Assembly (NCBI GenBank): GCA_958009085.1
Contig: OY253671.1
Coordinates: forward strand, 1,550,001 to 1,614,000
Length of the DNA: 64,000 nt
Source: Protoeuglena noctilucae
Taxonomy: Eukaryota
Reading direction: 5' to 3'
Notes under the pieces: generated by a model
What the model was told of the DNA's origin: nothing
The model's input: the letters and a program-made list of their open reading frames with translations, nothing else
Database searches by the model: none
Translations under genes and position numbers: made by a program
Shown: piece by piece, positions 1 through 64,000 of the stretch
Layout: every line of letters starts with the position of its first letter
How positions within the stretch are numbered: position 1 is the first letter of the stretch

Positions 1-2553
1 CCCGGTGAAACGCCAGAAGGACGTCGGGGAAGAAGACGCCGGGGAGGGAGGGGACGCTGTGGGGTGGGGGAGTGATGGTGAGATAAGCAACAAGAGCGAT
101 GAACCAGTGGTGATGATGGCATTGATACTGATAGTGAAAAGTGTTACTTTTTCTCGACCATTCACACCCCACACCCACCCCCATACTCACCGCTGGAACC
201 CCTCCAGCGCCCCCGGCTGCACTGAGTCATGCGGCAGCGTCAGAACGGCGTAGAGCCTGTCAGCGAACGCCGCGAATAGTCCCTTGATCAGGTCCCATCC
301 CGCATAGTCCCACCCCGCGCGCACGCACAGCATAGTCACGGCAAAGGCGCTGGGGGGGTGGTCGCCCGTCCCCACAATCTCCTCCATCCCGCGCCGCACC
401 GCGATCGCCTCTTCCTCCGCACTCATCTCCCACTCGTTATCATCACCGTCATTGTCACCGTCACCACCCTCCCTGTCACCATTACCACCCTCGCCGCCCT
501 CGCCATCACCGCCCTGACTAGGCGACAACCCCAGGGCGTCCTTTGACCCTTCCGCAATCGCAGACAGCTCCGGAGCCGGCTCATCCTCATCCCCATCCCC
601 CTCCTCCACCCCACCCTCATTCTCACCCCCACCGCCATTCCCACCCCCACCACCACCACCGCCCCCCCTCCCCCGCCGCTCCACCCCCTCCCTCGCCTCC
701 CTAACTAGCGCATCATAGTCATCCGGCTGCATGAGCCAGTCGAAGGTATCTAGGTCGAAGTGCCGGTATAAGAGACGAAGGTCGACGTCCGCGCTTGCGG
801 CTGCCATGGCCACCACGCCGTGGCCCTCCGCCTCGACCAGAATGACCTGGTTGGACTGCGGGGGAGGGGAGATGAGGGGGAATTTGAATTTGGATTTGAA
901 TTTGGATGGTCTCTTAGGTGTGAATGAGTGACCGGGTTGGACTGCGTGGGTGGCCATAATGCCCATGCGCCTCCACCATCTGCAACCCACACACCCACAC
1001 CCACCCCACATCCACACCCAACACATAACACACACACCAACAGCAACACCCACACATCCCCACTCGCCTCATCCTGCCCCTGCACCATCTGCGCCAGCGC
1101 GAACTCCGCGTCCCCCTCCCCCTCCCCCCCCACGTACGGCGGCAGCTGCGCAAGAGTGGGGCACGCCACGCGCCCGTCCGCCACGATAGGCACCAACTCA
1201 TCAAAGTCCTGGGGCCGCGCGCGCCGGGCGGTGAGGCGGGGCATGACCGACGATCGGCGCGACACCACCAGGCCCACGCCCAGGTCGGCAGAACGGTCGA
1301 CTGCGGGGGGTTGGGGGGTGGGTAGGAGATGGATGGTGGTGTTGGGGGTAATTAAGGTGATGGTGGTGGTGGTGGTGGTGGTGGTAAGGTCAGACGAGCG
1401 GTCGATTGCGGGGGGTTGGGGGGTGGGGGATGGTGGTATGGTGTGGTGGTGGTGGCTAGTATGGTGATGGTGGTGGTAATTAGTATAGTTGTATACTAAG
1501 GTTAGAATGCAACGACAACGACCGCCACTGCTACCCTGTCCAAACAACCCTACTCATCCGCCAGGCGCGCACTCGCTTGCATACCCTGTTGCCGCCCAGT
1601 CAGTCACTTCGCAACTACTCACTTGTGGTGGCCAGGCCCTCCCATCCCTGGGGCACGTACAGCCCTGCCTGGGCGCGGGCGGGCGTGGCGGGGGCGCAGA
1701 CAGCCGCGATAGCCATGAGGTCCACGTCGAGCGCGAACGCCTTGCGCAGAAGCGCCGCGGGGATCTCCGGGAGCCCGAGGGGGAAGAGGAGGGCCGCGAG
1801 CCAGGCGCAGGCGGGGGCACGCAGGTCGTGCGACGTCGCGGACGACGTCGCCCACGCGAGGGCGCGCTGCGGGTCCGCGACGCCTACGGCGGGTGGAGAA
1901 ATAGTAGTTAGGTGAAGAACAAATGCAAATTTAGTCGGCGACGCGCGAGAGCGGGAGGGTGAGGGCGAAAAAGCGCACCTGTGGGCGCCTCCGGGGCGTG
2001 TCCGATGGCCAGGAAGCCCACGACGGCCATGCGCGCTGCGTCGTAGGCAATCAGTGCGAGAAAGGACGTCTCGACGAGGCGGCCGACGTCCGAGTCCGGC
2101 CTGCGGGGCGGAGGGAGCCAGCAAAAGGCTTCGCATGGGATCTGTGAGGCTGGCGGGCCATGAGGAGACGAGAATGACAAACGGTTCAGCGCTTTTACAG
2201 CATAAGTCATTGCGCAGGCGCAAGGGATTGCCTCTGAGCATCGAGGTCGTGCGCGGGGGCCCAACGACGCACAAACGCACACGCTGCGGACCCCGCGCCG
2301 CGCGGAGGGACGCGAGGACATTTGTAGCTTGGCGGAGACGGACACCGAGCGTCGCGAGCGCGGGCAGCGCCAAGCAAGGTCGCCCTGCGCGTCGCCCAGC
2401 GCGGCCCGAGTACATGCTCTCGGCGGGGCAGGGAGGCGCGCACCAAACGCACCTGCCGCCGGGCAGCAAGGCCTCGATGCCCGGGACGTCATCCAGGGTG
2501 GATATCCTGATGAGGATGGGGGAGCGACCCCCTTCCCCGTCCGCGCGAGACAT
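1..2553 (-). CDS. CFAP61: Cilia- and flagella-associated protein 61 (FAP61/CFAP61), multi-exon, 5' part; continues off the window's left edge
   Basis: ATG at 2553 (MSRADGEGGRSPILIRISTLDDVPGIEALL). Exon peptides ARRARPQDFDELVPIV...EFALAQMVQGQDE|NQVILVEAEGHGVVAMAAASADVDLRLLYRHFDLDTFDWL, AFAVTMLCVRAGWDYAGWDLIKGLFAAFADRLYAVLTLPH and VPSLPGVFFPDVLLAFHR resemble the recalled CFAP61 N-terminal region (R-x-A-R-x-x-D-x-D-x-L-x-P-I; F-D-L; L-P-H; F-H-R). Confidence 0.8.
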
Positions 2554-2947
2554 TTTAGCGGGGCGGCTCCACGTGCGCGGCGCGGGGGGCCCCGGGAGCG
2601 CGCTCTGAAGCGGTGTCTGCCGGCTGCGTCACGCCACGGAACCAGGGAGAGACAAGATGAGACTTAGCCACGTGCAGGTCTCTATTTTACAGCAACACAA
2701 ACCTGGGCCGCATGCGACGCGATGGACCCAAGCGACAGCCGCGAGGTCACGAATGCACCGCGATGGCGGACGCGAGGGGAAACAGGTCCTCGCCGCAACT
2801 TCTGACAGACGTGCGCCCCGTGCCGCAGCGCTGCAGAGCTCGAGGGAGGGATTCCTGCGCCATCACGGACCCACATTTGTCATCGTCGCAATCTCCTGCT
2901 ATCGGCGACCGGCATATCCGAGGTTCTCGCGCCCCAGGCGCCCCGCC

Positions 2948-4734: not shown

Positions 4735-7700
4735 ATGCCGCCCCGGAGGAAGAAGCGGGGCTCCGCGGGCCTCCGCTACGGGCCCCGCTTCGAGTTATTT
4801 TGCGTGGTGGAGGTGCCGCACCCGCGCGAGGCCGGCCAGCGCGTCCGGCTGTACTACCTCCAGGAGCGCGAGGGCGACCGCAACGTGCTGGCCGTGCTGG
4901 GCGTGCGGGAGGACGGCTCCCCCGCGCCGGGCGCCCCGGGGTCCGCGCCGGCGTCCGAGTGGCTCTTCATGACCGCCCCGGGCTTCGCGAAGGGCCCCCC
5001 GCTGCAGTTCCGAGTCGAGACGGGGCTCTTCCAGTACCTCAGGTGCGGATGCGGCTGGGTGTATGCTGATTGGAGGATGTGTGTGGGGTGACAGGGTGGT
5101 GGTTATGGTGAGGGGAGGGTAGGGGGAGAGTTGGGAGAGGGGGGATGGGGCTGGAGGGAGGGTGGGTGGGGAGGGCGCTGCTCACACGCTCCGTCTCTTG
5201 CCCATAACCAACCCCCGCCAGCCTCTGACGACACACTAACTGCTGTGATCCGGTATCTCTCAACCACTCTCACTCATTCCCTCATTCCCTCACCCCCTCC
5301 CCCCATCTCTCACCCCCCCGCCCGCAGCAGCCTGGGCGGCACGCACGAGGTGCCCAGTGAGGGCCTGGACCTCCCCGAGTATCGAACCGAGGACCTCTTG
5401 GACCCCCCCACTCCCCTGGCCTTGCGTCGCCTGCCCCCCGTGCCCTCTTTGCCGACCACCTACGTCGACTTTGCTGCGGAGCGGGGGAAATACGACGACG
5501 GCAGGAACTACTGGAAGTACACGCTGGTGAGTGGGTGTGAGGGGGGTGGTGACGGTAAAGATAGGATGAGTGGCAGTACACGCTGGTGACTAGATATCCA
5601 TCCAACCTATATTGACCATATTCTCACTTGTTCTCACTCTCAGATCCCTGAGTCGGGTGCGCCTGAGCTGGCGGTGCTGGGGGAGGATGGGCCGAAGAAG
5701 AACCGCGTCTACACCTACAGGGCAGAGGCCAAGGTGAGATGGGATGGATATTATGATACTATGATATGTGGATAAGGCAGGGGATGGATGGGTGTGCATA
5801 TGCACCTGATGTCGGCTTCAACAGCTCCCTCATCACCCTCCTCGCACAGCTTGCCATGCCGCAGTATCGCATCACATATCCTCATAATCCCCTTTCTCCC
5901 TATTCCCCCTCTCAGTTCGGCGGTGCTACGTTTGACAACAAGCTGGCCGTGGAGTCGTGGCTGTGCATCCTGTGCGGCAAGGAGCCACCGCCCGTGGGGG
6001 TGAGGGGAAGTAATGGTGGTGTAGCTGTTGTATATATATTGCCATTCGCACACTCTCATCTTTGTGACTAACAGAGCAACCGCCCGTGGGGGTGAGGGTG
6101 ATGTGGGGTTGTGTGGCTATTGCATGCATGTATTGCCATTGTCTCACTTGTCATCTATGTCACTGTGCTACTCTCCTTTACTCTCCCATTTTTCATTTTG
6201 CGCCATCACTGCACCCACTCTCTCACCCGCATTCCCTTGCCCACACACTCACTTACCCTCACCCACCCACCCCCTCCCACTCCCCCACTGACCCACACCC
6301 ACTCACCCCACCCCCCTCCCTCCCCCCTCTCAGGAACCCCCAGCCCCCGAGGCCCGGGAGCCAGCCGGCGTGTCCCTGCCCCGCCCATTGGTGCTATTCC
6401 CGCATTCAGAGGCATTCGGTACCGATATATACGGGGGGGGTGCGGGGGAGGGGTTTGGGTCGGAGGCGGGGGGTGGGGGGTATGGGGAGGGGGTGCATGG
6501 GGGGAGGGAGGGGGCGGGAGCGGGGGTGGGGGTGGGAGAGGAGGGGTGGAGGGTGTGGGGGACGCCGGCAGGTGAGTGGGTGGTGTGGGTGTGGGTGCGG
6601 GAGAGGTGATGTGTATGAATGGGTGTGCGGGTGCGTGAGGGGTGTCGTGACTGCATGTGGGCATGGTGAGAGGTAGCAGCAGGTTAGAGTGGGTGAATGC
6701 GCATTGTGGGGTCAAGCACCCTCCCATCACCTGTGCCCTTCCCACCTCACCGCTCACTCTCACCCTCACCACCCCCCGCACGCGTTGGCCCAACCCCGCC
6801 CCATCCCGCACCTTATCTCTCACCCCATTTCAACTCCCATTCCCACTCACAGGCCCCCTCACCACCCCCCGCACGCCCCTCTTCGCCGGGTCGCCTCTGC
6901 CCCCCCTGAGCCCAGCGCTGGCGGGGCAACTGTTCGGTTCACCGTCCACATCGCGCACCCGGCCCCCCCTCTTCCACACCGGCCCGGGGCAGCCCATGGG
7001 GCCCGGATTGACCCCCGCGCCCACCCCCATGCGACCGCGACCGCCGGGCAGCCCCCTGCCGGGAGGGTCAGTGGTGTCGTATCCGCTGGTCGCGCCGGGG
7101 TGGCAGGGGTTCTTCCCGGAAAGCCGGGGTGGATGCGGTGAGGGGATGTTATGATTGAGATATATTGGGATGTAATTATGGTGTACATATTTTTATAAAT
7201 ATTGATTATATTTGTCAATTAAATTTTCTGGTACTATTATTATTGATTTTATGGCATTTATTATTGATTTTATCACTATCATTATTGTAATTATAAATGA
7301 TTAGTAATGACTACAATTTCTCTTCGCATCCCGCAGTCATTTGCGGCTCCCCCGACCACCTGTTGGCCGACTGCCCCCACCACCCCGCATCCGAGATGGG
7401 GGCGCAGGGGGTGGCCCTACCCGCGCCGCGACAGGCGAGTTGACATCGGTGTTATGCTATTCTATTGTTATACTAAAAATCGAATGATTATATCACAATA
7501 TCATGGTATCAATCGACATCACACTATGGCATGCGTATGCGCACCCCACCCCACAACCACCACTCCCAAACACCCCAGCTCACCACTCCCCCACTCACTC
7601 ACTTTTCGCCCCTCTCCCCCCACCACCGCAGCCCGGCGCAGACACCACCCCGCAGTCGCAGCTGGTGGTGAGGCCCGTCCCCACCGCCGCCACCCCCCTC

Positions 7701-9770
7701 GTTCTGCAAACCCTCGCCAGTGCGACGGGGGGGCTGAGGGCAGAGAGCAGTGCGGGGGTGGGGGTGGGGTTACAGGGTGCTTTCCGCAATGCAGCTGCGG
7801 GAGAGGGGCAGGAGGGTGGCAGTGCGGGTGCGGGTGCGGGTGCGGGTGGCAATGTGGGTGTTGGGAGTGGCAGCGGGGGTGCTGTTGCGTCGTTGAGTTG
7901 GCTGCGGCAACCGAGTGCGAGTGTATCTGCCATCGCATCTCCCCTTGCACCTGACATGAGCCATTGGGCGACCACGGAGCCCACCGAGGCAGAGATGGCG
8001 CAGTACAGGTGAGGATGGGGTATGTGATAATTGTAATTGTATGGTAATTGTGTGTTGTAAATAAGATGGCACAGTACAGGTGAAGAGGGGATGTGTGGGT
8101 GTGGGTGTTATCTATGTTAGTGTTGGGGTGTGTTGAATGTGGATTGTGTGTTAGATGACGCAGTACAGGTGAGGGGTTTGCATTGGGGACAGCATGGCGT
8201 AATACAGCCGACGTTGCCTGCTGTGCTCATGTATAATGAATGATAGGCTGGGTGCCACCCCCACTGACACTCTCATGGCCATCCTCATTGCTACCCCCAC
8301 TCCCACCCTTACTGCCACCCCCACCGCCACCCTCACCCTCAACACCACCCCCACCCCCACTGCCACCCTCAACACCCCCCATATCTCCGTCCACATGCAG
8401 GGATTGGCACTCTTCCCTCTCCCGCACTGCCGACCTCGTCTCCCGCAATCAGGCGGTGCATCACTTGCTGACTCAGGACGACCACCGCACATTGGCCGTG
8501 CTGCAGCACCTGCACTCGATGCCACGGTGGCAGCCATGCCTCAAGTGAGTGAAGATGTTATGGGATATTCAATTATTCAAATAGTACAGCATTGCACAGT
8601 CGCCGTGCTGCATCTCTCTCTCACCTTCACTAATGACAGCCATGACACACGACACCGCATCAGCGCCTATGATACATCAATATAATGCATATATGCACCA
8701 CGCATCCATATATACAAATTTCTCATTCTATTCCCATTCCCCATCATCCCCCCAGAGTGCACGAGTCCCTTCGCATCGCCATCCCCGTCGCCGTGCTGCG
8801 CCACCACCCCAACCCCCCCATATCAAGATTGGCTGGGGCATTGACAGCCAGATGGAGAGAGATGGCGGCATCTGCGTTGCGGGCGCTGGGCAGACAGGAG
8901 CCGGCGGGGGCGCCTGGGGGTGGCGGGGTGGGTGGCAGTGGGGGTGGCGGGGAGGGTGGCAGTGGGGGCGGCGGTGAGGGTGGCAGTGGGGGCGGGGGTG
9001 GGGGTGGCAACGAGGGTGGCAGTGCGGGTGGCGGTGAGGGTGGCAGCGGGGCTGCGGGTGAGGGAGGTGCGGAGGGTGGCAGTGCGGACGGGAGTGGCGG
9101 GGGAGGGGAGGGGAGCGGGAGGGAGGGTGAGGGCGGGGGTGGCGGTGGGGGTGCGGAGTTACAGGGACGGGGTGGTGGTAGGGGTAATGGAGATGAAACT
9201 GGGGCAGCGGGTGCGAGAGAGACATTGGCATTGACTGGGTGCGATGAAATGCGCGTGGGGTGGGGTGACGCTGGCGGTGGGGTGGGGCGTGTGGGTAGCA
9301 GTGGGTGCGGGGGCGAGGCGGGGAGCAGCGGCAATGGTGCGGATGCGGGAGATGCGGCGCTGGGGTGGCGGGGCGGGGAGCGGCAGCGGTGGGGTGCGGG
9401 GGAGAGGGGGCGGGGTTGCGATGATGGGTCGGCTGTGAACGGCGATCGCCCGGGAGGTCTGCCGATCGAATCACGGGGCCAGCACGGCAAGCGCCTTTTC
9501 GGCAAGCAGCGGGCGGGGCTGGCGGCGGGGGCGGGGGTGCGTGTGGGGGTGGGGGTGGGGGGTGCGCATGCAATGGGGTGTTGTGCGTGGGCGACTGGGT
9601 TGGGATGCCTGGGTCGTCGCGAGCCGCGGCGCAACGCCGTTTTCCCCGCCCCCGCGCGCCGGGACGCTTCGCCGATTCTGGTGGCTTCGCTGCCAGTGCC
9701 TTCGCCAGTCGCGGCCGTGTCGGGGGGCGGGGCGCCGCCGCTGCTTTCACCCGCGCCGTTGGCCGCATGA
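4735..9770 (+). CDS. Putative nuclear protein: two N-terminal copies of a small beta-rich domain, low-complexity middle, TFIIS-N/Med26-like helical bundle
   Basis: Starts MPPRRKKR (NLS-like). Contains exons RLYYLQEREGDRNVLAVLG and YWKYTL|IPESGAPELAVLGEDG...YTYRAEAK|FGGATFDNKLAVESWL. Later exons give LAVLQHLHSMP...K|VHESLRIAIPVAVLRHHPNPPISRLAGALTARWREMA. The 3' end is uncertain. Confidence 0.6.
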
Positions 9771-10389: not shown

Positions 10390-13300
10390 CCACCTTGTTG
10401 AGCCTCATGGTTTCAAACACCATCGACTCAATGCCACGGTCCAACTGGGGACGAACGTGACTCATCAACTCCTGGGGAGAGGGGAAGAGTTTGATTAAAC
10501 TAAAGGTTTTATTACTAGTGGATTAATTACTGTTAATTGCCAGTCCCGCCCCCTCCTTATCACTATAATGAAAAAGGACCCACAATTGCATCACTCGCCT
10601 ACACCACTTCCCTTGATCAATATCATTGCCGGCCCCACCCCACACTTAATTGCTCTCAGTAACCAACCCTCATATCATCTCAATCCATAGCATGACATAC
10701 GCTCGCCTGCACCACTTCTCTTGATCATCCCCTTCATCAACAACACCAAACCCCCACCCCACCCCTCGCCTGCACCCTACTCCCAATAACAGGGACCACT
10801 CTCATCCACGAACCCTCATCTCATCTCAACCCATGAAACAATGGACTCGCCTGCACCACTTCCCTGGGCAGCAGCTTGGACGCCGGATCGACCGTGGGCC
10901 CCCTCACTCGCGACCCCTTCACGCGAGAGGGTATGGCTAATGGCGTTAAACGCAGATGGGCGGTGAGGGGGCGGGAGAGGGACCAGGCAATGCCGAAGTT
11001 GTCGCGGGGGGGGCGCATGCCGGTCAGGCGGCCTGAAGGTGGGGGAGAGGTGGGTGGTGGTGGTTGCGGTTGGGATTGTGGTAAGTGGAGTGAGTAGCTG
11101 TTAGTATGGTGGATGGAGTGGGTAGCACCCTCTCAATCATCGATATCTCACATGCGTGCATCGCAGGTCTAGGCATCACAAGCAAGCAAGCGTGACAGCA
11201 TCACGGCAGCTAGTCATGGAACCAATAACCACAGATAAAGTGATTCTTTTATAGACAAAATGACAGTGCATGTACCACAATGCCCCTCACCGCTCCCCGG
11301 CCGGCTGCCCCCACTCCCGCCCCCGCCCACGCTGCCCCCAGGCGACCCATCCCGACTGCGCCCATCCGATGCCCGGCGATGGGTCATGTGCGCGGGTGCC
11401 GCAAACGCAGAGACACCCGCACCCCCACTGCCACCCGCACCCGCACCCACCCCCCCCCTCCTCGCAGAGCGCCGCTGTGTGTGCGTCCCCCCCGCCACCC
11501 CAGGCACCGTCGGCGCCTTTTTTGAATTTCCCGGCGCCCCCTCCCCCGTCGCCGGCCGGGGTGTCACCGCCAGTCGAAACGCCAGACCCACCGTGCCGTC
11601 CGCCGCCACCGGGCCGGGAAGCAGCGCATTGGGGTGGTTGGAATTTGAATTCGAATTGCCCAACTCCTCCCCTGCCTTCTCATCCACTTCTTGTTCCACG
11701 GGTAAACCCCGCGCCAGTCTCGCGCTGCGTCGGTGTTGGCGGTCCTGCTCCTTGATAGCGCTCTCCCACAGAGCGACGCCGGCAGATGCGGATGCGACGC
11801 CGCTGTCTATGATACCGCCATTGCCACCACCGCCACCCCTTGCACCACCACCCGCACCGCCACCAGCACCCACACCGCCACCAACACCAACACCCCCGCG
11901 TTTCGACCCCGCCCTCACCAGCGCCGTCTGCGCCAGGTTACTCAACCCCTGCCGCTCCCCCTCCCCCCCGCCCCTCCCCCCATGCAAAACCCCACCCCCC
12001 GCCCCCACCGCCTGCCGCAGCTGGCCCCTCCCCCTCGCCCGCCGCACCTCCACCGCCCGCCTCACAGCCTCCGCGCCCGCATTCGCCAAATCCGGACGCC
12101 CCGCCATTGCAGCAGCGAGCGTCGTTGTACCCCCCAGCTCCTCCCCACCCCACCCCGCCCCACGCAGCGCCACCTCCCCCACCGCCCCAACAGGCATCGG
12201 CACCACCCCCATCAGCACCGCCCCAGACACCTCCTCAGCACGTTTCTCTCTGTTAACGTCACCATTAACGGTGACTCCCTCCACAGCACGCTTCTCGCCA
12301 CCCCCTCCCTCCCCACCGCCACCGTCACTGTCGCCCCGACCCCCCGCCCCCTTTCGCAGCCCCAACCGTCGCGGCGACCCACCCCTCCCCCTCCACCCCG
12401 CCTTCCTTTCCCCTTCCGCGCTCTTATCCCCTTTCCCTTTCCCCGATTCCGCACTCGGCTTGACTGCTTTAGGCCTCAGCTCAGCCACCTCCGCCAGCCC
12501 CACCAGCGCCGCTGCCAAAGCAATGCGGCCACCCCGGTCCGACACGCCGGCGAGCGCCGCGGGATCGATATTCGTGTATTTCGGGATATTATTCGCGATA
12601 TTATCTGGTGAGCCCCTGGCTGCGCCCGATGGCGCACCGAGTGAAGTTGGCACCCCCACACCGCCACTCGCATTGCCACCCCCACCCGCACTGCCACCAC
12701 CACTACCCGCACTGCCACCCGCACTGCCACCCGCACCGCCACCCGCACCCGCACCCGCACTGCCACCCGCACCCGCACCACCACCCCCAGCCCCACCCCT
12801 CCCCGCCCCCTGCCCCCCCACACCGTCAGAGACCCTGTGCCGCTCCGGGCTGCTCCCTGCCACATGCCTCGTATGCGATTGCGATTGCGAGTGACTGTAG
12901 CCCTGTCTGTGCCGTCTCTCTGGGCTGCTCTCACTCACACGCCGGCCACCCCCACCGCTGCTGCTAATTTGTGCAGCGCTTTGGTTGTGGTGGTTGGAGG
13001 TTGGTTGTATATAGGCATTGCCTTGGGTATTACCACCACCATGATGACCATCACCACCATGGTCATTATCCTTATCGTTATCATGTAGACGATGACGATG
13101 ATTATAAGATTGGCGTGGATCGATCCATAGGGGCGAGGATGCGCGGTCGGATGGGATGAGGCTGGCGAGGGATGACTCGGTGGTTTGAATTTGGGGGGCG
13201 TCGGGGAGAGGGGCGGTGGTGGTGGGGTGGCGATGGGTGGCGTTGATGGTGAGCACACTGCAGGGATGAGGGGAGACGGGTGGTGGTGAGGGGAGTGGTG

Positions 13301-15896
13301 AGAGCAATGCAGGAATGAGGGGGGTGGCCTTGATGGTGAGAACACAGGGGGGATGGGGAGAGGAGATGGGGTGGAGTGGGGTGTGTGTGAGTGGTGGGTG
13401 GTAGTAATACATACTGAGGCATCACATCGTATCACCCTCCCTTGCACTGCCACTCATACCCACCCACACGCCCAACCCCACCCACCTGTGCCTCTCTGGC
13501 TGCGTGACAGGGGCAGCATCGTACCCTACATCAATATTACTATCACTATTGCTCTCCCTTGCACCATCACACCCACCTGTGCCTCTCCGGCTGCGTGACA
13601 GGGGCAGCATCACACTGAAATATAACTACTCTCCCTTGATCTATTAAACCCACCCTTCCACCGCACCTGTGCCTTTCTGGCTGCGTGCCCGCCACCGCGC
13701 TGCCCCTCATCATGCGCTCCCCCCCTTCCTCCGACCCAGACACGCGCACCATGTAGCTGGCCTGGGAGGGTGGGGGATTTGAATTTGAATTTACATGGGG
13801 TCACGTCAGCGTGTGTGATGGGAGATGTTGAGAGGGTTAATGTGAACCACCCTTCCTCTATGCCCATCCACAAATGGCAAAGTCAACACACGCAGTCACA
13901 CTCTCATTCCCAGTCCCCATAACACCCACTCATTCCCACTCACTTCCATTTCTATTAATGATGTCCAATACCCCCATTCCACATCACAACTCTCACCCTT
14001 TCTGCTTCCCTCTCCGCCCTCCACGTGGTCGAGTCAACACACGCAGTGACAGCCACGCTAACAACCACTACTCACTGATAATAACCAATAGTAACCAGTA
14101 ATAACCAGTAATAACCAATAACCCCTATTCAAATAACACCCCACTCACCCTTTCTGCTTCCCTCTCCGCCCTCCACGTGGCCGAGTCGTGCACCGCGTCC
14201 TTGAGCGTCAGAATCATCCGGCTCTTGGCCAGAAGCAATTGCTGGCGGGGCAGAGCACGATGTTCGGTCTTTAATGCCTCAGTTACCAGTTGCAGGCTGC
14301 GGTGGATGTCTCTCCGCATGGTCGGGAACTCAGGGGAGTCGAGGAGAGAGGCGTAGGTGCACATGCAGGTGCGGAGGCGGAACAGGACGCTGCAAATGGG
14401 GGAGAGTGTGTGATAGATGGGTTGATAAGATGAGAAAGAGAGTGTGATATGATGGAAGAGTGAAACATGATAGCCATCTCAGTCACTCTCATCTCCCCCA
14501 CCCGTACGAGAAGGTGAGTATGGCACGTGCATTTAACACACAACAGCTATTGTACACAATAAAGTAACTTCAATATTTCGTATTGTACCAACTACCTCCC
14601 TCACCCGTACGAGAAGGTGAGTATGGCCTCCAAGTTATCGTCGGCCCTCTTGTCGGTGGTGTGCATGGTCAGTCGGCCCCCCTCCAATCGGAGACTGCGG
14701 AAGGACTTTCCGCGGATCCAAGACTCGGTGCTGTGGCTGGGAAGGGACTCGGGGACGTCCTGGGGGCACCACAGCGCAAAGCGAGGGGGTGATATTCGTG
14801 ATAACATATGAACATTGGAATGTTTTTGATAAACAGTGTTGCAGAGGTGCATTTGTGATTGATGCACCCACTCTATCTCACACACGCACCCCCACCCCTC
14901 ACCTCGTCCCCCTCGACTAATCTCTTGTACTTGTGCACCATCTCCCGGAACTTGCGTGGCGGCTTGACGTTGAGCGTCGGGAACCGCAGCTCCCCCATCG
15001 CGGGCCGGCCCCCCTGGTCCACTTTAGCCTCCAGCTGACTCAGGGCCTTGTCCAGAGCAACACTGAACGGGGAGGTAAGAGATGAGATGGTGAGGGTTGC
15101 GAATGGCGTGAGGGGTGATGACGGAGCAAGTCAGCACGCCGAGCAATTGTGCTCTCTAGAGCAGCTAGCAAGTAGTGCTCTAGGTCACGGCAGCTGATGT
15201 CCGGCCATCCCTTCCCTTAAACAACCACGCACGCACCGTGTCTTGGCGTGCCGCTTGACGTGCTCGGCCACGTTAATCTCGCCGCCCCGCAGCGCCGACG
15301 TGCCTTCAGACCCTTGGGACCCACATGCACCACCTCCACCGTCCTGGGCGCAGCAGAGAAGCGAACGCGGCGTGGGAAGGTGGGGCTAAGTGAGACAGGA
15401 CGGCACGGGGAGCCAACCGGTGCGCCGGACGCCGCCGTGACGCTCGCCAGCTCTGCTTTTAGGCGCATGCGTTGCGCATATGCAAGCAAAATGCCGCTGC
15501 GCGGCGTCAGGGCTGCGCCCCTCGCGTCACAGGCACCCCGATGCGCCTTGCTCGCCTGTCCATCGCCAGCTCCGCCTCATCGCGGATGCCGAGCAGTTCG
15601 CATGCCATTTGAATGGCGCTCTTGCCCTCCGGGAGGCTCGCGCCGGGCTCCCATGCCGAAGGCTGAGCGAGCGAAGCAAACAGAGAAGTTTTCTTGCCCA
15701 TACGGCACGACGCGTCCGAGGCCCGCGAGCCGGCATTTTCCGCATCTATGAAAGCAGAGGACACTCTGCATACATGCACGCGCGGACCGCTTACCTTGGC
15801 CTCCCGCTGCGACCTGCTGAAGAGCTCGCTCGCCACCACGCCCGGAATGCTGTGGTGGCGACCCGACAGGAACAGCTCGCTGTTGGCAGCTTCCAT
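10390..15896 (-). CDS. Large multi-exon hypothetical protein, extensive Gly/Ala low-complexity region
   Basis: Spliceable exons: MEAANSELFLSGRHHSIPGVVASELFSRSQREAK, PRRVRFSAAPRTVEV, VALDKALSQLEAKVDQ..., FALWCPQDVPESLPSHSTESWIRGKSFRSLRLEGG..., CTYASLLDSPEFPTMRRDIHRSLQLVTEALK..., a long exon around 11270-13190, and ELMSHVRPQLDRGIESMVFETMRLNK. No family recognised; the last exon is unresolved (possibly about 10150-10250). Confidence 0.55.
14080..14124. repeat. Intronic ataaccagta-like short tandem repeat
   Basis: ataaccaata gtaaccagta ataaccagta ataaccaata acc. Confidence 0.8.
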
Positions 15897-16378
15897 GGCT
15901 AGGTATCCACAGCGCGTCCTCCGGCGCCAGCCGACCCTCTAAGCGACGCAATCCGGCGAAAGGTCACGCGCACATGGACAGCGACGCCGGTGCGCCTACG
16001 ACCCCGTCTGGGCTTCCGGAGAGCAACCTGGAGTCCGACATTGGTGCGGCACCGACGAGAGGTCCGCATTTGGCTGGTTTTTGTTCTGCCAGTCTGACGG
16101 TGTAAAAAGTTGGTTTCCTGCGGCGTCAGTTGAGGGGACGTGGAGCAGGTCGCTGCGTAGTTTATTGCGAGAGTGCGTGTGGCGCTGTCCTCGACGCTGC
16201 CGGGTCTCTAGTTTGTGCGAGCCACCGGGCAATTGCCCAGGCTCGTCGTTCTTGGGTTGGGCACCCTGTGCGGGTGGCTGAGCTCGTCCTTTTGGCTGCG
16301 GTTACCCGGCGCGCGTCTCGCTTTGCTAAAAAGGGGTCGATCGGGCCTGCGTGCCGCCTCCGTTTGCAGCGGTGCGCC

Positions 16379-21259: not shown

Positions 21260-22208
21260 TGGGACGAGGTTTGTTAAGAGGGGCAATGAGGGTGTTGAGT
21301 GAGAGGGGCAGTGAGTGAGGGGCGCAGAGCGAGGCAAGGCACTGAGGGGGGGGGGGGAGGGGTAGAGGGGGTGGCAGGAGGGTGTTGAGTGGCAGAGAGG
21401 GTGTTGAGTGAGAGGGGCAGTGAGTGAGGGGCAGTGAGTGGGGGGGCATGACGTGGCACGGACTGAGGCTACGCACAGGGGGAGAGTGGAAGAGGAAATG
21501 AGGATGACAAATGAGGGGCATTGAGTGGACTTGCAGGGATGCCCGAACTGCGGGTGTTGCGGGTGGCAGGGCGCAGCTGGGGGTGCCCGCCTATCCCAGC
21601 CCCGTCACTTCTCACATATAGCAGCGCACGGCATTGTATGGCATTACGACTGCGTTTTTCCTTTCAAAAGTACTTAGCTTGCGTTTCCCGGGTAGCTCCA
21701 TTTCAGCGCAGGGGGCGCAGTGGGGCGCGTTGAATCACCGAACAGCGACAGTCGCACTCATGTGTCACTCAAGAGACACCGCACAGCACAGCACATGACA
21801 GGGGCAGGGAGTCACGACTCACATCCGCATGCGTCAGCGGGCGAATTCGGACTCTGCATCGTTTTGCATCAGCATGCGCAAGTTGTCACTGGCCGGCAGC
21901 CGTGGAACTCTGTCGCGTTTCAAAATCGGAGATCGCGTGAAGTCCCGACGCGGGGTGCATCCCGAGCTAGCTCAGCCTAGCCTAGCCGTCTAGTCTAGTC
22001 CAGCCAGGCACGAGTACAAGTCTGTCGCGACATCCCTCACGCATCCACGGCATCGCGACGAGCTATCAAAGTGACTGCGACTGCAACTGCACCTGTGCTG
22101 CAACTGCAACTGCGCTGCACCTGTGCTGCAACGGCGACAGTCCTTAACACACACAACGCCTGTCAATGTGTGAGGTGCCGGAGTGGGTACCGAGAGTTGA
22201 AGACTACC

Positions 22209-29119: not shown

Positions 29120-29404
29120 CTTCGCCCTCTAGCTGCAGAGCGGCGTGCGTGCCGTGCCCCAGTAGCGCAACCACTCGACCGCGCGGCGGCGTGACCTTCA
29201 GCGATGCGGATGCGCAAGTGATGTTGCTTGGATGCCAAAGATGGCCGCACGGGCCCGCTTGATGCGCTGTTCGAAGCGCATCGGGTGCCAGAACCCGACG
29301 CCATGGCGTCAGCAGGTCCTCGCGTTCCCGCGGCTCGGTCCACGATGCCCGCAGTTCTCCTCGTAGCCATCCTATGCCCGCACTTTCCAAAGCAAGAGGC
29401 GAAA

Positions 29405-32290
<2,886 letters not shown>

Positions 32291-42780: not shown

Positions 42781-42813
<33 letters not shown>

Positions 42814-50789: not shown

Positions 50790-53700
50790 ATGGCGATGGC
50801 GGTGAGCGACTGATGCGCCCAGTGCTATGCTCCTCGTATACATCGGCATTCCCGGCTAAGTCCTAGTAACCCTTTCCTCGCTTCCCCCAGGGCCGCCGCG
50901 CGCACCCCCACGTGAGGGCGGACACCCCGGCCGGCCGAGAGGGCGTCGACCGCGCCGCGCCGCCCCCGCCCGTGCGATCCGAGCAGGGATTCCGGTGCGC
51001 ATGAGTCATTGGCAGTCAGCTTGCATCCTCGCCAGCACCCGCAGCATGCCGACCGTCACGGCAAGCGCTTTACTGCACAGGGCCAGGTGATTGCATCCCT
51101 GCTCGCTCCTATATCCGCAGCATATACGACTCGGATGACGAGGGAGGGGATTCGGGACGCCGCCGCGCCTTGGTCCGTGCGGGTGATGCCGTGATGGGTG
51201 CCGAGGAGGCGGGGTCAGTCGAGGCGCTGATGGAGCGGCTGGTGCGGAGGGGGCGGCTGATGGACGCAGAGAGGGCGTTCCGGAAGTGGGCCTTTGCGGT
51301 GAGCGACGGGAGAGTTATTACCATGCAGCACAGTCAGTGCTAAGTGGCTACATCTGCGCTCATGCCATGCACTCATGCCACGCATGCAAGCCATACACTC
51401 ACGCCACGCATGCACCCCCTCTGCAGGACCCCAGCCACCCTCGCCCCCCCTCCCTGGGCCCTCCCCGCCCCAGCCTGGCAGCCACGCGCCTGTACCTCCG
51501 CGCATTGATCGGCGCCGGCATCAAAGGCATCGCGGCCCACGCACCACCCCACGCAGTGCCGTGGGTGCGGCATAACCGAGCAAGGGAGGCCATCGCTCTC
51601 TATGCGGATTTGGAGGCGCGCAGGGGGGGCGACCCCGCACAGGGAGTGAGCGCGCTGGTCGAGGAGCTGGCGGCACAGGTGTCAGCAAACCTCGCATTGA
51701 CCGAGGACGAGCGGCTGACCCTCGTGGGCGCGGCTGAGTGGGCCATGGCAGAGCACGGCGCCGCACCATCTGCCGCCGCGCGCGTGTGTTTGGCCGAGTG
51801 TCTGCTGCGCGCCGCCAAGGCCGCTGAAGCCCTCGCGTGGCTCGCCGGCGCCGCGCACCCCTCGCCCCCCGAGTGGGCCGCGGTGCGGCTGGCACAGGTG
51901 GCCAGCCTGGCTTTGGCAGAGCTCGCGGCTCAGGGGACGCCGCTGCGGGAGGTCCTCGCTTGGGCGCGACGCATGGCATCCGCAGGCGTCCACCCCAGCC
52001 CCCACGCCCTCCACGCACTCGCCACCACCGCATGCGACGCCCGTGACTCCAACGCCGCCCTCGTCGCCACCCGGGCGCTCCTCGCTTCTGTCGCCGCCTT
52101 TGCCGATCGACGCGGCCGCGTCCACGTCCTCCCCGCACGCGCATCCCCCGCCCTCTGCGAGTCGCTGCTGGGGGTGGCGGCCGCGCTGGGCCACGCTGCG
52201 TTGGCCGAGGCGGCGTGGGAGCTGGCGGTTAGGTCCCTGCACGTGCCCACGCCGCCCGCGCACTGGCGCCCACTCACGCTCTGCCGGATGCCGGGCGATG
52301 GGGGAAGAGGGGCCGAGTCGGGTCTGTGGGAGCGCACGGGGCTGCCGGGAAGAGGGGCGGGGTGGAGGCCGGGAGCGGTGCTGGAGGGCGCACGGCGCAA
52401 GGGGGGGGCGCAACGTCGACTAGCGATACTGCGGGCGAGGGAGGTGGCGAGGGCGGCGGCCCTGGCGCGGCTGGCGGAAAGCGGGTGGAGCGCGGGTGCG
52501 GGTGTGGTGGAGGATGACAGGAGGGGCTTGGCGAGTGAGGCGGAGTGGGGCGAGGGGGAGCAGGCGTGGGCACACCGACGACGGATCAACGCCATGATCG
52601 CGAGGGAGCTGGTGAGGGGGCATTGGGGATGCTGTGTGTGTGAGGAAGCTGGTGAGGGCGTTGGGGATGATGGGTGTGTGAGGGAACTGGTGAGGCATAG
52701 GAGATTCGCGCAAGCAAGGGGTCTGTCCTGGTGTGAGGCGTGGATATTGTGGTCTCTGAGCAGTGAGCCAAAGTCAACTGCTGTCTTCGCAGAGCTCTGC
52801 GGAATTGGACCGCGCCGCCGCGGAGATGCTAAGCAGTGGGGCTATGGAAGGGCCGAGCACACATACCCGGCATGGCACAGCAACAGAGGGCGATGGGGAC
52901 GTGGATGGCGTGGATGGCCAGACTGACCTGGTGGACCCATCAGCGACCCTCTACGTCAGCTCTCTATCGCTGCGCCGCGCGGGGGACGCCCCCGCCCCCG
53001 TGCAATGGCACGTCGATCTTTTCCACACCCACGCCATGACGAGCGCACAAGAGGCCAGTCGGGACCCATTGCACGCGTCCGTGCTGCCGAGGGCCTTTGC
53101 ACCAAGCGGGGAGGTGGCGGTGGAGCCGAGCGAGAAGCCGAGCGAGGGGCAAGGAGACGAACAGGGTGTTGCGGGGGGGCAAGGGGATGCAAAATGGGAC
53201 GCACGGGATGGTGGCACTGGTAGTGTTGCGTGGGCGGAGGCGGTGTTGGCGGAGGCGCGGGAGAGGGAGCTGGAGCGGCGAGTGAGGTTCGAGAGGGCTG
53301 TGCGGGCGGAGATGGAGTGCGCGCCGGGGTGAGGAAGGGAGGGGCGGAGTTTGCAATCAGCAGCTACGGCGGGGCACAAGACACCAACACACTCGCACAC
53401 CGTCACAGAGCCCAGATAGTGATGGCTGCGGTTCACTTCATCCCTTCTTGCCGCTCTCCCCCCCAGGTGGCGCGTGCGCCCCCCCTCGGCCGTGCTGTAC
53501 CACGGCCTGGCCCATGTGTTGGCGTGGCAGGGGGACCTGGAGCGCGTGTGCTGGGTGGTGGCGGCCCTGCAGAGGGACTACCCCTGCTCGCCCGCGCCTG
53601 CCCCGGCGCCGCCCGTGGCCGTGGAGGGGGGAGAGGGGGGCACGCGGGTGACGGTGTCGCCGGCTGAGATACTGGTGAGGGGACTGGACTTCCATTCCTA

Positions 53701-56878: not shown

Positions 56879-58736
<1,858 letters not shown>

Positions 58737-59297: not shown

Positions 59298-62200
59298 ATG
59301 CTGATACCTTACGGCTTTCCCACTGTCTGGGCCCTCGGGCAGGGGACCGACGGGGCCAGCGCAGGCCAGGATGGGGACCCTGAGAGTGAGGCCGCGCTCG
59401 TTGCGCGCCCATCGCCGAACCGCGCGAGCTATGCGCTCGCCGCGATCCTGCCAGTGAGCTGTCGCATCATCGCTACCGATCCGCGCCCCGAGACATGCCT
59501 GTTAACTTCCAGGCTTTCCAAGGTTCCCACCCCTGCCAGGACTTGTCTTCACCCACCAAGCCCCCCCTTCCCTGCGACACGCAGAGACGACTGCGCTCAA
59601 GGTGCTCTCCACGCCCTCCCTCATGGCCGTGCTCACCTCCCGCGGCCTCGAGGTGTGGTCGGCCGGGCGCGACCGCCACTGCGTCGCACGGTGGGCCGCT
59701 CCCCCGGGGGAGGCCCCCATCGATTTCTGCCTGTGGCCGTCCGCCCCCGCCGCCGCGGTGCTGTGCGCCCCCGACGCCCTGCATCTGCTCACATGGAAGG
59801 AGACCTGGCAGACGGTGGCGGGGTCTCCGGTCCCATCCGCATCGGTGCAAGTGCGACACGTGGCAAGGGTGCCCGCGAGGGCAGGCGCCACGCCGGTGAT
59901 CCTCGCGGGCGGCGCCGTGGGTCTCGTGCAGCCGCGCGGGGCCACCGCCGACCCGGGTGCTGCCCCGGTGGCGCTGGCGGGTGATGCGGGCGCGGTGGCA
60001 GTCGCCTTTGTGGACGGCAGCCTGCTGGCCGTGTCGTGGGCCGGGCGGCCCCTCGGCCTCGCATCCGCCGCGCATTGGGCGGCCGACGCTCCCCGCGACA
60101 CCCCCTCTCCAGCTGCGGAGGTGGCGGTGGGGGGAGGGGTTGCTGCGGTGCGCATGCCGGGGCTGGGGGTGGCAGTGTGCGCGCTCCCATCGCCGGGAAT
60201 CGCCGGGGTGCCCCCGCCGCCCGGGGATGCGTCGCTGCTCCCCTCCCCCGCCTCCCTGCCCGGGTCGCTGCTGGTGACGGAGGGGCGGGGACCGTGTGCT
60301 TTGGCGTTGGCGGCGGATGGCGACTGGCTGGCCGTGGGGATGGAGAGCGGCACCGTCGAGCTGTTTCAGACACGGGGGGGGACGGCAGGGGCGGACAAGT
60401 GAGGCTCACTCGTGCCTGCCATTGCGTGCCTGCCCACCCATGTCGCTGCCCATTCGTGCTTGTGCGCAACACGCCCCAACATGCATGCTACCCTGTGTCT
60501 GTCTCCCCTGCAGCAGTGACCCCCTCCCCTTCGCGTGGCTGCGCCCCTCGGACCTCGGTGACCCCCACCCCGGCGCCGTCACAGCCCTGGCATGGTCACC
60601 CTGCGCCACCACTCTGGCAGTGGGATACGCATCCGCACCCGTCGCTCTATGGTCTCGCGCCGGCCACCGCCTGGCCTCCCTTGGCCCCGACACGGCGTGG
60701 ACGCCCGGCAAGCGCGGCGTGTTGGCCACCGGTGCTCGGTCCATTGCCTTCGCTGCCCACGGCGCATTCCTGGCCGCTGTGGGGGGCAGTCCCGACGACA
60801 GGTGACGATGACGATGACGATGGGGAGGGTAGTTAGTACACAAGAGTGAAAGATGTTGCGGGTGCATATAGCAGTTGACGATGACGGTGGGGAGGGTAGT
60901 TGGGGCAACGGTGATGGATGCTGCGGATTGATGGCAGTTGGCAGTTGTATCACTCCCCGCATCCCTCACTCCATCTTCGATCCCTGTTCACTCGACTGCA
61001 ATGTTATTGCTCACACCTCACGTCATCATCTCTCCACTCTTCTCTCCCCCAGTCACGCGGTGGTGGAGGTGGGGCTGGCGCGCGCCCCCTCGGGCCTCCA
61101 CCCGCAGCCGGCGATGGGCCCCGTCGCTGGGGGGAGGAACGCGGACGCAGCGGCGGCGGCACCGGGGGCGGCTGGGCGTCGTCACTGCGCGGCGATGGTG
61201 TACGGGGATGGGGTGCTGCTGGTGGGGGTCGACTCACCGCAGGTGACTTTGACAATGGGGGCGGGGGTGGTTGGGGTACTGGTGGTTGTAAAGTAGTTGT
61301 ATGGTTGCTATTTAATCTCAATTGTTCGCATGTTCCATTCACTCTCCATAGCAGTACTAACCAATCTCCCCCTCCCCTCCCCTGGTCTCTCCCCCAGGGT
61401 TCCCTCCCCAGCCACGACCGCATCCACGCGCACGTGATGGCCGTGCCTGCCCCCGAGGCGTACCTCGCCCACTGGCCTCTGCGCCACGTCGCATGCCGGG
61501 GGGACGCGGTGGCCGTCGCGGGGTGCAGGGGGGTGGCAGGTAAATGGGTGGGGGGGTGGCTATGCAGGTGGCTAGCAGGGACTGATGAAGCATCTCTGTA
61601 CTCACCACAACTGCTGTGCTCTCCAACTGCATAGCTGTGCGGTTGCCGCTACGGTCACACCGACTCTGCGACATCACGTCTCTCCCTCTCTCACCCGCAG
61701 TACACTCCCTGCCCTCCTCCCGCTGGCACCTCTGCGGCGATGCTCACCACGAGCGATCTTTTACAACTATTGCCATCGCATGGGCAGATGACCACCTCGC
61801 CCTCCTCACCACCCCACCGCCGCAGCCGGGCACGCCACCCCACGCGCACCTTGTAAGCAGTGACGCCCCGTCTGGGCCCATCACCCTGCAGGCGAGAGAG
61901 AGGGTGTTGTTACACATGCATGCAACATGACAGCACTGTTGCCACACACCACCATTGCCACCGCCACCACCACCCCATCCATGCCCCCCTCTCCCCTCCC
62001 CCCCAGGTCTACGCCCACGGCCGCCTCTCCCCCGACACCCTCGCCACCTGGGACCCTCCCCTCCACCGCACCCCCATCGCCCTCTGTGCCGCACGCACCT
62101 ACCTCGCCGTCGCCCTCGCCCCATCATCGGACTCACCCCTCACCGTCGAGATCCTCACCCTCACCGACTCCCCATCCCCACCACATCTAACACCCCAGCG

Positions 62201-64000
62201 CCTGGCATCCGTGGACATCGCAGACGCACCCCCTTTACCAATGACCACGGCCCTGCTGCTGAGCGCGCCCCACGCGACGGGGCCCGCCCCGCCATGGCTG
62301 CCCCCCGCCGGCCCCGGCCACCGCCTGCGCCCCTCGCATCTGGCAATGCTGTCCGGGTCTCAATCGCGCACGCTGTCGGTCGCCTCTCTGCGCACCGGCC
62401 GTGCGGCGCCTGTGGCGGTGAACGTCAACGCGGCGTGGACGCCCGGGGTGGCGGCGCTGGGGCAGAGAGACACGTGAGTGGGGGCGGTAGAGAGGGAGGA
62501 GTGATGAGGGTAGATACGTGAGTGGGGGTGGCAGAGGGGGGGGGTTGTGATCAGGGGGGATGCGTGTGATGGTGCGGCATAGCTGTGTCGCCATTCTGCT
62601 CTGTGTTTGCCACTCATGTCGCCCTCATGTTCACCACCCCCCCCATGTACCCACTCCCTCTCATGTTCACCACTCCCCCTCATGTCACCACTCACATGCC
62701 ACCCTCATATCCCTCCTCACTCACTCACTCACCCTCTCCCCTCCCCCCCAGTCGCTCCTCGTGGCCCCGCCCCGACGCCCGCGCCCCCTCGGCCGCCCAC
62801 GCATCGGTGGGGTCGCTGGGATCGATGGGATCGGTCAGTTCTCTCAAACTGGACCTGCACACCGTCAGGGAGGCAGTCGCGTACCCACACGGGCCCGGTG
62901 AGGGGGGGTGGATGGATGCGATTGGCAGAGACATCACTGATGATCAAGCGCACAGCTGATGACCGTGATGCTGCTGTGGCCATGCGCTGCAGTGCGGTGG
63001 TGTGCTGTCTGCTGCAGTTGTCATACATTGCGCTGCTGTCGTGCATTGCATTGCATCCATCCACAAAATGTCACCCCCCCCCCTCCCTCCCCCAGGTCTC
63101 CCCCGCCCCCCCCACCCCCTGTCCGGCACCGCGCGTGAGATGGCGTCCATGTCTGACCTGGGCAGGCTGCTCGACAGGGCAGCACACGTGCACGGGGTGC
63201 CCACGGGGGTCACCTCACCCGCCCAGGCGAGAAAGGGTGGGGGTTCATACTGCTGTCGATCTCATTACGATCAACAGCAGCGCTTGCTGTCTCCAGTGAC
63301 ACTCACTCACTCACTCCCACACTCCCACACTCACCCGCTCACTCACTCAGTCCCTCATTCACACCTCCCCCCCCTTCACTCCCCCCCAGTCCCGCCCCTC
63401 CCTCGACGCCCTCTTCCCCACTCACACTCACACACACAGACACACTCTCACTCACTCTCACCCATTCACAATCCCGTCTTCTCCCCCCCAGGCCCGCCCT
63501 TCCCTGGACGCCCTCTTCCCCCTCTCCCCCTCCCGCGCCGCATCCACCACCGCACTGCTGCCGCCCTGGTGGGTGGTGGGAGCCGGGGGACTACACTGCG
63601 CCCACCCATCGGCATTGACAGCCGTGGATGCAGACGCACCGATGACCACCATGGCTGCGCCACCCAACACAATGGTTGGTGCTATGACGAGTGGTTCTGG
63701 TGTCACGTCTACCGTTGGTGTCACGTCTACTGCTGGTGTCACGCCTATTGCGATGTCTATGGCAACTGCTGGTGTCATGGCATCTCCTGACATGGTGGAT
63801 GCTGCATCTCCGGGTGACGTGCCTGTGGACCAGGATCACGTGACAGTGGGGCTCGACTGGCAGGGGGGGGCGGTGGTCACGATGAGGCGAGTGCGCGAGA
63901 GGGGGGGGGCGGTAGCGAAGCATATGATGCGAGTGGCTGTATTGGGCACTCGTTGTACTAACCAATCAACCAACAATCGCCTGTGTCATCGCGATTGCCA
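59298..64000 (+). CDS. RIC1: RIC1 (Rab6/Ypt6 GEF complex subunit), 5' part; continues beyond the window
   Basis: MLIPYGFPTVW start, GLEVWS, WD-like GAVTALAWSP..LAVGY, and PEAYLAHWPLRHVACRGDAVAVAGCRGVA|VHSLPSSRWHLCGDAHHERSF. These match the recalled RIC1 motif (Y..NWP...A...LAVAG..G......W..FG...QE). Confidence 0.75.
63698..63780 (+). repeat. 18-nt tandem repeat (tggtgtcacgtctacygc-like, about 4.5 copies), probably coding GVTSTV-like units
   Basis: tggtgtcacgtctaccgt tggtgtcacgtctactgc tggtgtcacgcctattgc ... tggtgtcatgg. Confidence 0.7.

Follow-up and report, generated by a model that had tools for sequence, protein, structure and literature searches.

Why should about a quarter of the introns in one stretch of a genome carry a decayed copy of their own splice junction? 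The question is raised by 64,000 nucleotides (nt) of DNA from Protoeuglena noctilucae (assembly GCA_958009085.1, contig OY253671.1, positions 1,550,001 to 1,614,000 of the forward strand). This whole stretch is called the window here, and positions are counted from its first letter. A preliminary description of the window had noticed that many introns contain a near-copy of the adjacent exon end together with its splice site, and had attributed these "echoes" to a recurrent process of local duplication or templated insertion by which the introns are built. The answer proposed here is a generic one. With a probability of roughly 0.7, what is seen as echoes is the part of an ordinary population of short local duplications that happens to span a junction; these duplications, mostly tandem or minisatellite-like and with units of about 35-190 nt, would occur throughout the introns. 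They are a dense and fresh case of a known type of event, namely boundary-spanning minisatellites and tandem duplications, and no new mechanism.

Are the echoes more than chance resemblance? All echo statistics come from this one 64-kb window. The junctions were taken from a self-training hidden-Markov gene finder written for it, whose initial output of 20 genes and 118 introns was corrected to 18 genes and 118 introns with all reading frames open; most of these models are unverified predictions. For each junction, 40 nt of exon joined to 12 nt of intron served as a query against the rest of its own intron, with all other introns as control. At a score of at least 12, 21 of the 118 donors and 14 of the 118 acceptors had a copy, compared with expectations of 0.74 and 0.70; together this makes 35 of 236 junctions, where about 1.4 were expected; at a score of at least 16 there were 12 on either side (12/118 each), against expectations of 0.06 and 0.05. 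Reverse-complemented queries stayed at chance level (1/118 donors, 0/118 acceptors), and so did exon segments lying 60-112 nt from the junction (matches in 1/74 and 1/77). When junction queries were aligned to the intron across the same exon, scores of at least 14 appeared only for predicted and doubtful micro-exons of 10 and 16 nt.

The preliminary description was accurate about what is there. Its 15 example pairs are all present: three were read directly, an unbiased scan recovered fourteen, and the fifteenth (41784-41823 with 41707-41746) was again read directly. Its estimate of about 30 introns in about 11 genes compares with a tally of 28 echo-bearing introns, roughly one in four, spread over 11 genes. 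The junction events (n = 32) are all direct copies, with a median spacing of 92 nt (38-185), a median block of 32 nt (16-61) and a median identity of 0.92 (0.84-1.00). The similarity was said to cover the exonic part and to fade in the intron, and 27 of the 32 blocks do span the junction, reaching a median of 9 nt into the intron. Echoes were also said to be absent from compact introns and from ALG13, eIF5A and hemC; among the 21 introns that are at most 100 nt long, not one holds an event of any kind, whereas 29 of the 49 introns longer than 200 nt do.

The next question is whether the junction itself matters. An ungapped diagonal scan of each intron with its flanks (offsets 35-400, score at least 14, with a cross-intron control) returned 84 local direct repeats where 1.3 were expected. 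On the corrected models these cluster to 69 events, of which 34 are intron-internal, 20 donor-spanning and 15 acceptor-spanning. Duplications inside introns are therefore as frequent as those across junctions (34 against 35), an outcome that the preliminary description had itself named as speaking against a junction-tied process, and that part of its interpretation falls. The two kinds also match in scale, with median spacings of 78 (internal) and 92 nt and median blocks of 27 and 32 nt, and the internal events have their midpoints anywhere from 0.17 to 0.78 of the way along the intron. A uniform model, in which spacing and intron length are those of each event and the unit may begin at any point with equal chance, predicts 36.4 ± 3.3 junction-spanning events, or 31.8 ± 3.4 when the exon part is capped at 60 nt; 32 of 63 were observed. 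With introns of about 180 nt and units of about 90 nt, a duplication that is tolerated has to cross a junction in half of the cases.

What, then, gives the echoes their orderly appearance? Short local duplications would arise all along the introns and would then pass through a filter of selection. Duplications within exons would survive only in frame, while those within introns would be neutral. One that straddles a boundary would be neutral only if the original site stays in use and the extra copy is intronic: a duplicated donor would leave the messenger RNA (mRNA) unchanged only when the upstream site is used, and a duplicated acceptor only when the downstream site is used. The extra copy would then decay neutrally, and its exon-derived part would stay recognizable longest because the partner exon is constrained. 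The outcome would be longer introns and a supply of decoy splice sites. We infer the role of selection in this scheme as well as its molecular route, which may be replication slippage, microhomology-mediated tandem duplication or the fill-in of staggered breaks.

Spacing carries the imprint of such a filter. In a scan of the whole window, every one of the 20 exon-internal events has a spacing divisible by 3, a property shared by 9 of the 21 events inside introns and by 5 of the 20 at junctions (classes JI and IJ together). As for polarity, the preliminary description had found donor copies downstream and acceptor copies upstream of the real sites. The pattern itself is real, and the same whole-window scan (low-complexity score below 1) gave no junction copy on the exon side; as the sign of a special process it loses its force, since selection alone would leave it. 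Only copies that remain in the intron leave the mRNA unchanged. Long in-frame tandem repeats are also seen in predicted exons, at 22600-23400 and, on the minus strand, at 24386-24530 and 12650-12800, where the predicted proteins are of low complexity and rich in Gly, Pro or similar residues.

How old are the copies? If a copy decays evenly while its exon changes only synonymously, mismatches at the three codon positions are expected in the ratio 1:1:2. Over 694 exon-derived sites they number 15/232, 10/233 and 37/229 at positions 1, 2 and 3 (chi-square p = 1e-5), which is compatible with that ratio (hand calculation, chi-square about 2.5, p about 0.1). The copies are old, with a rough estimate of 5% divergence per lineage, and are decaying neutrally, which argues against recent origin, gene conversion and constraint. 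Gene conversion from the real exon had been considered as a means of keeping the copies alike and found no support: the excess at third positions shows that the two evolve independently.

The duplications have left their mark on intron length. The idea that recurrent local duplication adds material to introns holds up, in that introns with an echo have a median of 257 nt, compared with 149 nt for those without any event (Mann-Whitney p = 3e-8), and the detected units cover 18% of all intron bases; subtracting one unit lowers the median of the echo introns to 180 nt. The suggestion that the same process may create introns or let them slide found no such backing in this window, where the spacing of an event never comes within 10 nt of the length of its intron and sliding was likewise not seen. 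Over all predicted introns, the median length is 181 nt, the donor consensus is AG|GTGAG, and the acceptor is C-rich and ends in CAG.

A second feature of the introns is their composition. All 118 predicted introns run from G-rich to C-rich on the sense strand, with G falling from 43% to 10% and C rising from 16% to 52% across deciles; the introns at 6572-6852, 18705-18931 and 20900-21114 are good examples. Close to the donor there are runs resembling GTGAG or GGGGT, and close to the acceptor CTCAC-like ones that recall branch sites; the two halves of an intron are roughly complementary. The possibility that echoes are placed at the switch from G-rich to C-rich sequence was tried and rejected: only 3 of the 32 fall no more than 10 nt away, and positions are not skewed toward it.

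Several published systems resemble these echoes. The closest is the minisatellite in intron 7 of human F7, made of 37-bp units of which the first spans the boundary of exon 7 and intron 7, and whose pseudo donors are functional yet silent (PMC1557585). As in the window, where three-copy arrays also occur, direct head-to-tail copies start in the exon and pseudo donors follow the real one. The upstream-most donor is the one used in F7, and in the window the choice of site is known from one RNA contig. F7 is a single locus with short, contiguous and identical units, whereas here about 30 junctions in 64 kb are involved, on both the donor and the acceptor side; the echoes have mostly two copies, which are 84-100% identical, with units of 38-185 nt and a unit remainder that is often unrecognizable. 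Microhomology-mediated tandem duplications, in turn, are widespread, near-neutral and depleted from coding regions (PMC13167724, PMC8639346). The likeness lies in this near-neutrality and in their being purged from coding sequence unless in frame, as with the exon-internal events described above; the difference is that here the microhomology arms are detectable in few events, many pairs are not contiguous, and the copies are old and fixed instead of new and subclonal. Finally, introns can be gained by tandem duplication of an AGGT-containing exon segment, the unit lying within the exon and the new intron having the length of the unit (PMC3265369, PMC4974935, PMC2891723). There too, a tandem duplication doubles the splice signals and the spliceosome removes the surplus, whereas in the window the duplication bridges a junction that was already there and makes its intron longer without creating another. 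A literature search, in which subscription journals were thinly covered, returned only single-locus cases and general accounts of tandem duplication, none at such density or in algae. Nothing in it contradicts the preliminary description, which knew of no account at such density, though as a sign that none has been published this is weak.

Part of the unit structure agrees with tandem duplication. Of the 27 junction events tested, 11 show homology in the remainder of the unit at p <= 0.05, and p lies between 0.05 and 0.2 in 6 further ones. Three of the 21 intron-internal events are contiguous, and in 11 of the 18 that are not, the spacer is homologous. Three-copy arrays lie at 13479-13687, 7993-8174 and 37665-37758. 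A number of observations nevertheless weigh against so plain an account, and they are best taken together. Ten of the 27 junction events are block-only (p > 0.2) compared with 2 of the 21 internal ones (Fisher p = 0.044); the pairs at 14493-14627 (31/32 identical) and 30817-30911 (29/29) belong here. Two ways of explaining these block-only echoes away were rejected: they are not merely older, since the median block identity is 0.89 in one class and 0.88 in the other, and their spacers are not simpler and faster to decay, complexity being alike (Mann-Whitney p = 0.94). A tandem unit followed by decay therefore does not explain these events, which make up about a third of the echoes. Where unit remainders can be aligned, their intron part is about 30-40% diverged, gaps included, and about 10% would be expected from the 5% decay of the exon part. 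The exon part exceeds half of the spacing in only 3 of 29 events (binomial about 1e-5, hand calculation), which is below what a uniform phase predicts. A third microhomology arm was significant (p <= 0.05) once among 20 donor tests, twice among 11 acceptor tests and five times among 38 internal ones; decay blurs the edges of the units, so that absence of the arm says little. Per kb, intergenic and untranslated DNA (10.8 kb altogether, for example 10593-10760 and 21227-21450) has several times fewer local repeats than introns do: at spacings of 35-400 nt, 2 events are purely intergenic, beside 21 intron-internal and 20 junction events; a fully generic process would not predict this rarity. To these points must be added that the gene models are only partly validated and that a single 64-kb window was analyzed.

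The alternative that gains most from these observations is short-patch duplication at breaks. A staggered double-strand break, or a pair of neighbouring nicks, not far from the junction would be filled in and closed with unrelated filler separating the copies, or a junction patch of 16-60 nt would be copied into a break some tens of nt off. This is the main competitor for the block-only subset and perhaps for all of the echoes, and we hold it to be unlikely, if clearly the strongest of the alternatives. It would account for the ten events in which nothing beyond a sharp block of 85-100% identity is similar and for which neither age nor spacer complexity offers an explanation. A three-copy donor array on the minus strand (real 13664-13687, copies 13570-13611 and 13479-13520, spacing 90-91) fits it as well, its intron copies being 41/42 alike while the sequence between them agrees at only about 55-60%, and so does the shortness of the exon part of the copies, which measures 6-58 nt whatever the spacing. 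Weighing on the other side are the 11 of 27 junction events, and most of the internal ones, that are homologous over the whole unit. The spacers between copies (21-128 nt) are also unlike foreign filler: 28 of them, searched against the 64-kb window with blastn-short, matched low-complexity runs only, and they follow the local composition gradient of the intron. Typical repair filler is shorter than these spacers. Templated insertions of the polymerase-theta type often include inverted copies, and inverted copies are at chance level here. The position of the echoes is tied to no landmark that was tested. In plants, work by Vaughn and Bennetzen in 2014 and by Schiml et al. in 2016 reportedly traced small tandem duplications to the repair of staggered breaks. 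That small tandem duplications form at breaks with overhangs is a known repair outcome (PMC8355091), and such duplications share with the block-only echoes sharp edges, a size of tens of nt, the lack of long homology and possible filler between the copies; in the window itself no repair intermediate or break is visible.

A bolder variant can be imagined for the same sharp-edged echoes. They may record a dedicated process coupled to transcription or splicing, in which breaks or paired nicks, falling by preference no more than a few tens of nt from a junction, would lead to a 16-60-nt duplication plus new low-complexity filler, and introns would grow from both ends. This seems rather improbable; if true, it would explain the short exon part, the rarity outside introns and the gradient from G-rich to C-rich sequence.

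Could the copies instead be kept because they are useful, whether by offering alternative or decoy splice sites or by providing binding sites through which splicing is adjusted or decay of the mRNA set off? The preliminary description was right that decoy sites are seeded: the GT is still in register in 12 of the 20 donor copies, as is the AG in 8 of the 12 acceptor copies, with scores within the range of real sites, and judged by their sequence these copies are plausible decoys. In one pair of the photolyase gene, discussed below, the copy's donor (within 38794-38823) even outscores the real one, and in general the exon-derived part is far better preserved than the rest of the unit. The risk of cryptic exons foreseen in the same description is also real, at least for annotation, as one echo was called a 27-nt exon (32007-32033) by the gene finder and an RNA contig refuted the call. 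All the same, nothing suggests that selection keeps the copies, and a function is very improbable. The mismatches at codon positions 1 and 2 (25/465) show that the copies decay, about a third of them lack the splice dinucleotide, and internal duplications free of any splice site are equally common. The single RNA contig that crosses two echo introns uses the real sites at 30840 and 31936 only, with the caveat that contigs cannot reveal rare isoforms.

Still less probable is a mobile element, in which the spacer plus one copy would be a small Introner-like element or truncated retroelement with a long target-site duplication. The layout of the block-only events, with an unrelated spacer between two copies, does recall a target duplication around an insert, and Introner elements are insertions in genes of marine algae that are spliced out and flanked by a duplicated target (PMC9860276). 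Those elements form dispersed families with shared sequence and create new introns, whereas the spacers here share nothing and no intron was created. The cross-intron control gave about 1 match at a score of at least 16 in 33.6 million cells, so no family is shared within the 64 kb searched; the spacers, as said, match only low-complexity runs and keep to the composition gradient of their own intron. Target-site duplications are usually far shorter than the 16-61 nt of the duplicated blocks.

That the assembler created the duplications can be set aside, for although short-read contigs break at 14021/14151 and 31930/32008, nine pairs each lie inside one difference-free contig of an independent run and a codon-position pattern of substitutions is impossible for an assembler to produce. 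Contigs of that run (X1) span 14151-20997, 23219-31930, 13300-14021 and 32008-33200 with zero differences, and the pair at 14493-14627 also lies within a contig of run X7. The two runs belong to separate studies, so that whichever of them supplied the window, the other is independent evidence for the copies. The echo copies are not assembly artefacts. The two breaks fall exactly at the two longest near-identical echo pairs; near-identical copies of this kind will fragment k-mer assemblies of the organism.

The individual echoes can now be gone through, beginning with the donors; the p values given are those of a test for homology of the unit remainder outside the block. On the plus strand, the pair 5512-5530 and 5571-5589 (real site first, copy second, here and below; spacing 59) is 18/19 identical, block-only (p = 0.67) and retains its GT. 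At 5982-6006 and 6074-6098 (spacing 92, 24/25) the full 92-nt unit was duplicated, the intron part agreeing at 71% (p = 0.017). A donor-bearing block of 22-34 nt occurs three times, at 7993, 8064 and 8153 (span 7993-8174), and here the "real" copy is a predicted exon of 16 nt. Two predicted micro-exons, 7993-8008 (16 nt) and 59513-59522 (10 nt), coincide with repeated blocks and may be false. Farther along, the exon block 18672-18691 has a donor-side copy at 18758-18777 (spacing 86, 19/20) whose own donor has decayed from GT to AT, and 20336-20380 is matched with indels at about 20452-20491 (spacing about 116).

Two donor echoes, also on the plus strand, belong to the isocitrate dehydrogenase gene. 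One pairs 30817-30845 with 30883-30911 (spacing 66, 29/29), and the RNA contig uses the real donor, giving the intron 30840-30997. The other pairs 31884-31944 with 31982-32042 (spacing 98, 92% over 61 nt), the copy lying within the RNA-proven intron 31936-32212. The remaining plus-strand donors are at 52602-52618 and 52642-52658 (span 52602-52695, spacing 38-40), which runs on as a contiguous intronic tandem pair, and at 62468-62499 and 62512-62543 (spacing 44, 84% over 32 nt).

Among the donors of the minus strand, 14144-14187 and 13992-14035 (spacing 152) agree at 43 of 44 positions, and the end of the unit is conserved too, 14032-14051 matching 13881-13900. A 10-nt minisatellite at 14063-14120 sits in unit 1 only of this echo (13881-14187, minus strand). 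The pair 14596-14627 and 14493-14524 (spacing 103, 31/32) is a sharp-edged block and nothing more (p = 0.88), its 71-nt spacer having no counterpart. A donor-side echo joins 26911-26943 to 26857-26889 (spacing 54, 85% over 33 nt). The pair 41784-41823 and 41707-41746 (spacing 77, 93% over 40 nt) probably has GC as its real donor, at 41788.

Acceptor echoes on the plus strand begin with 6843-6876 and its copy at 6750-6783 (spacing 93, 85% over 34 nt), which has no AG. The AG is retained in the copies of 19881-19922 at 19766-19807 (spacing 115, 88% over 42 nt, p = 0.045) and of 20755-20813 at 20642-20700 (spacing 113, 88% over 59 nt, p = 0.020). The exon block 21128-21153 has an acceptor-side copy at 20974-20999 (spacing 154, 85% over 26 nt) that is block-only (p = 0.98), and the C-rich pair 63481-63521 and 63379-63419 (spacing 102, 93% over 41 nt) has p = 0.018.

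On the minus strand, the acceptor at 1282-1322 is echoed at 1387-1427 (spacing 105, 88% over 41 nt), where CAG has become CAA and the remainder is homologous (p = 0.022); the one at 840-867 and 926-953 (spacing 86, 86% over 28 nt) is block-only (p = 1.0). Others are 32989-33028 with 33058-33097 (spacing 69, 88% over 40 nt, p = 0.012) and 44878-44899 with 44954-44975 (spacing 76, 21/22), the latter having a third copy of 12 nt about 78 nt farther upstream. The perfect pair 47336-47351 and 47521-47536 (spacing 185, 16/16) lies in an intron that also has a 63-nt internal tandem pair at 47422-47536. For comparison, a purely intron-internal array with a 44-nt unit occupies 28363-28535 on the minus strand, with a contiguous pair at 28448-28535 plus more copies.

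The photolyase gene, on the minus strand, holds echoes of both kinds. Its acceptor echoes are 37050-37084 with 37136-37170 (spacing 86, 94% over 35 nt, p = 0.015) and 38211-38246 with 38289-38324 (spacing 78, 89% over 36 nt, block-only, p = 0.69). Its donor echoes are 37741-37758 with 37665-37682 (spacing 76, 17/18, and a weaker third copy deeper in the intron), 38048-38080 with 37955-37987 (spacing 93, 85% over 33 nt, no GT in the copy, p = 0.016) and 38905-38934 with 38794-38823 (spacing 111, 93% over 30 nt).

As for the window itself, it has 64% G+C and one gap of 200 N at 39068-39267. Open frames gave Pfam matches to porphobilinogen deaminase, isocitrate dehydrogenase, eIF5A, protein kinase and photolyase, and among named organisms the deaminase exon has its best relatives in green algae such as Tetradesmus, Chlorella and a pedinophyte. 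Matching DNA is present in sequencing runs labelled marine metagenome and in those of one coded organism, and the window was therefore taken to belong to a marine green alga. Junctions were checked by the RNA contig in the isocitrate dehydrogenase gene and by homology in the photolyase gene, those of the remaining genes being predicted only. The contig confirmed six predicted introns of the isocitrate dehydrogenase gene and exposed the false 27-nt exon already mentioned and a missed intron at 29991-30200; a false split of the gene was corrected as well. The missed intron, on the plus strand, is of the GC-AG type with a GCGAG donor. A second GC-AG intron with a GCGAG donor probably lies at 41444-41788 on the minus strand, where it would unite the halves of a cyclic-nucleotide-binding domain and keep the frame open; a false stop at 41758 in the first model was traced to the GC donor. 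The exon borders of the photolyase gene, four echo-bearing junctions among them, were confirmed through intronless photolyase relatives from metagenome loci. This (6-4) photolyase or cryptochrome-type gene (36468-39928, minus strand) is interrupted by the N gap, and two models, G12 and G13, are one gene. A metagenome scan with a photolyase exon found no relative above 68% identity, so that the echoes could not be dated with a sister species. RNA contigs also terminate in T runs at 25743 and 32490, which fits poly(A) sites of minus-strand genes.

What do the echoes tell about the organism and its relatives? In genomes like this one, coding-like copies probably cause errors of annotation, as the gene finder misled into a false 27-nt exon illustrates. 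They also supply about 20 natural site pairs, for donors and acceptors alike, in which the real site is matched by a nearly identical decoy that is still intact, a ready test set for how the spliceosome chooses its sites in short introns. Above all, echoes are exon-anchored fossils of intron growth: selection has fixed the partner exon, so that each can be recognized, oriented and roughly dated, and through them the growth of short introns by local duplication becomes measurable. In Chlamydomonas, comparative genomics has stated the cause of that group's long introns to be unknown (PMC8226300). If the doubtful idea of breaks coupled to junctions were true, such a process might account for introns being so unusually long in GC-rich green algae.

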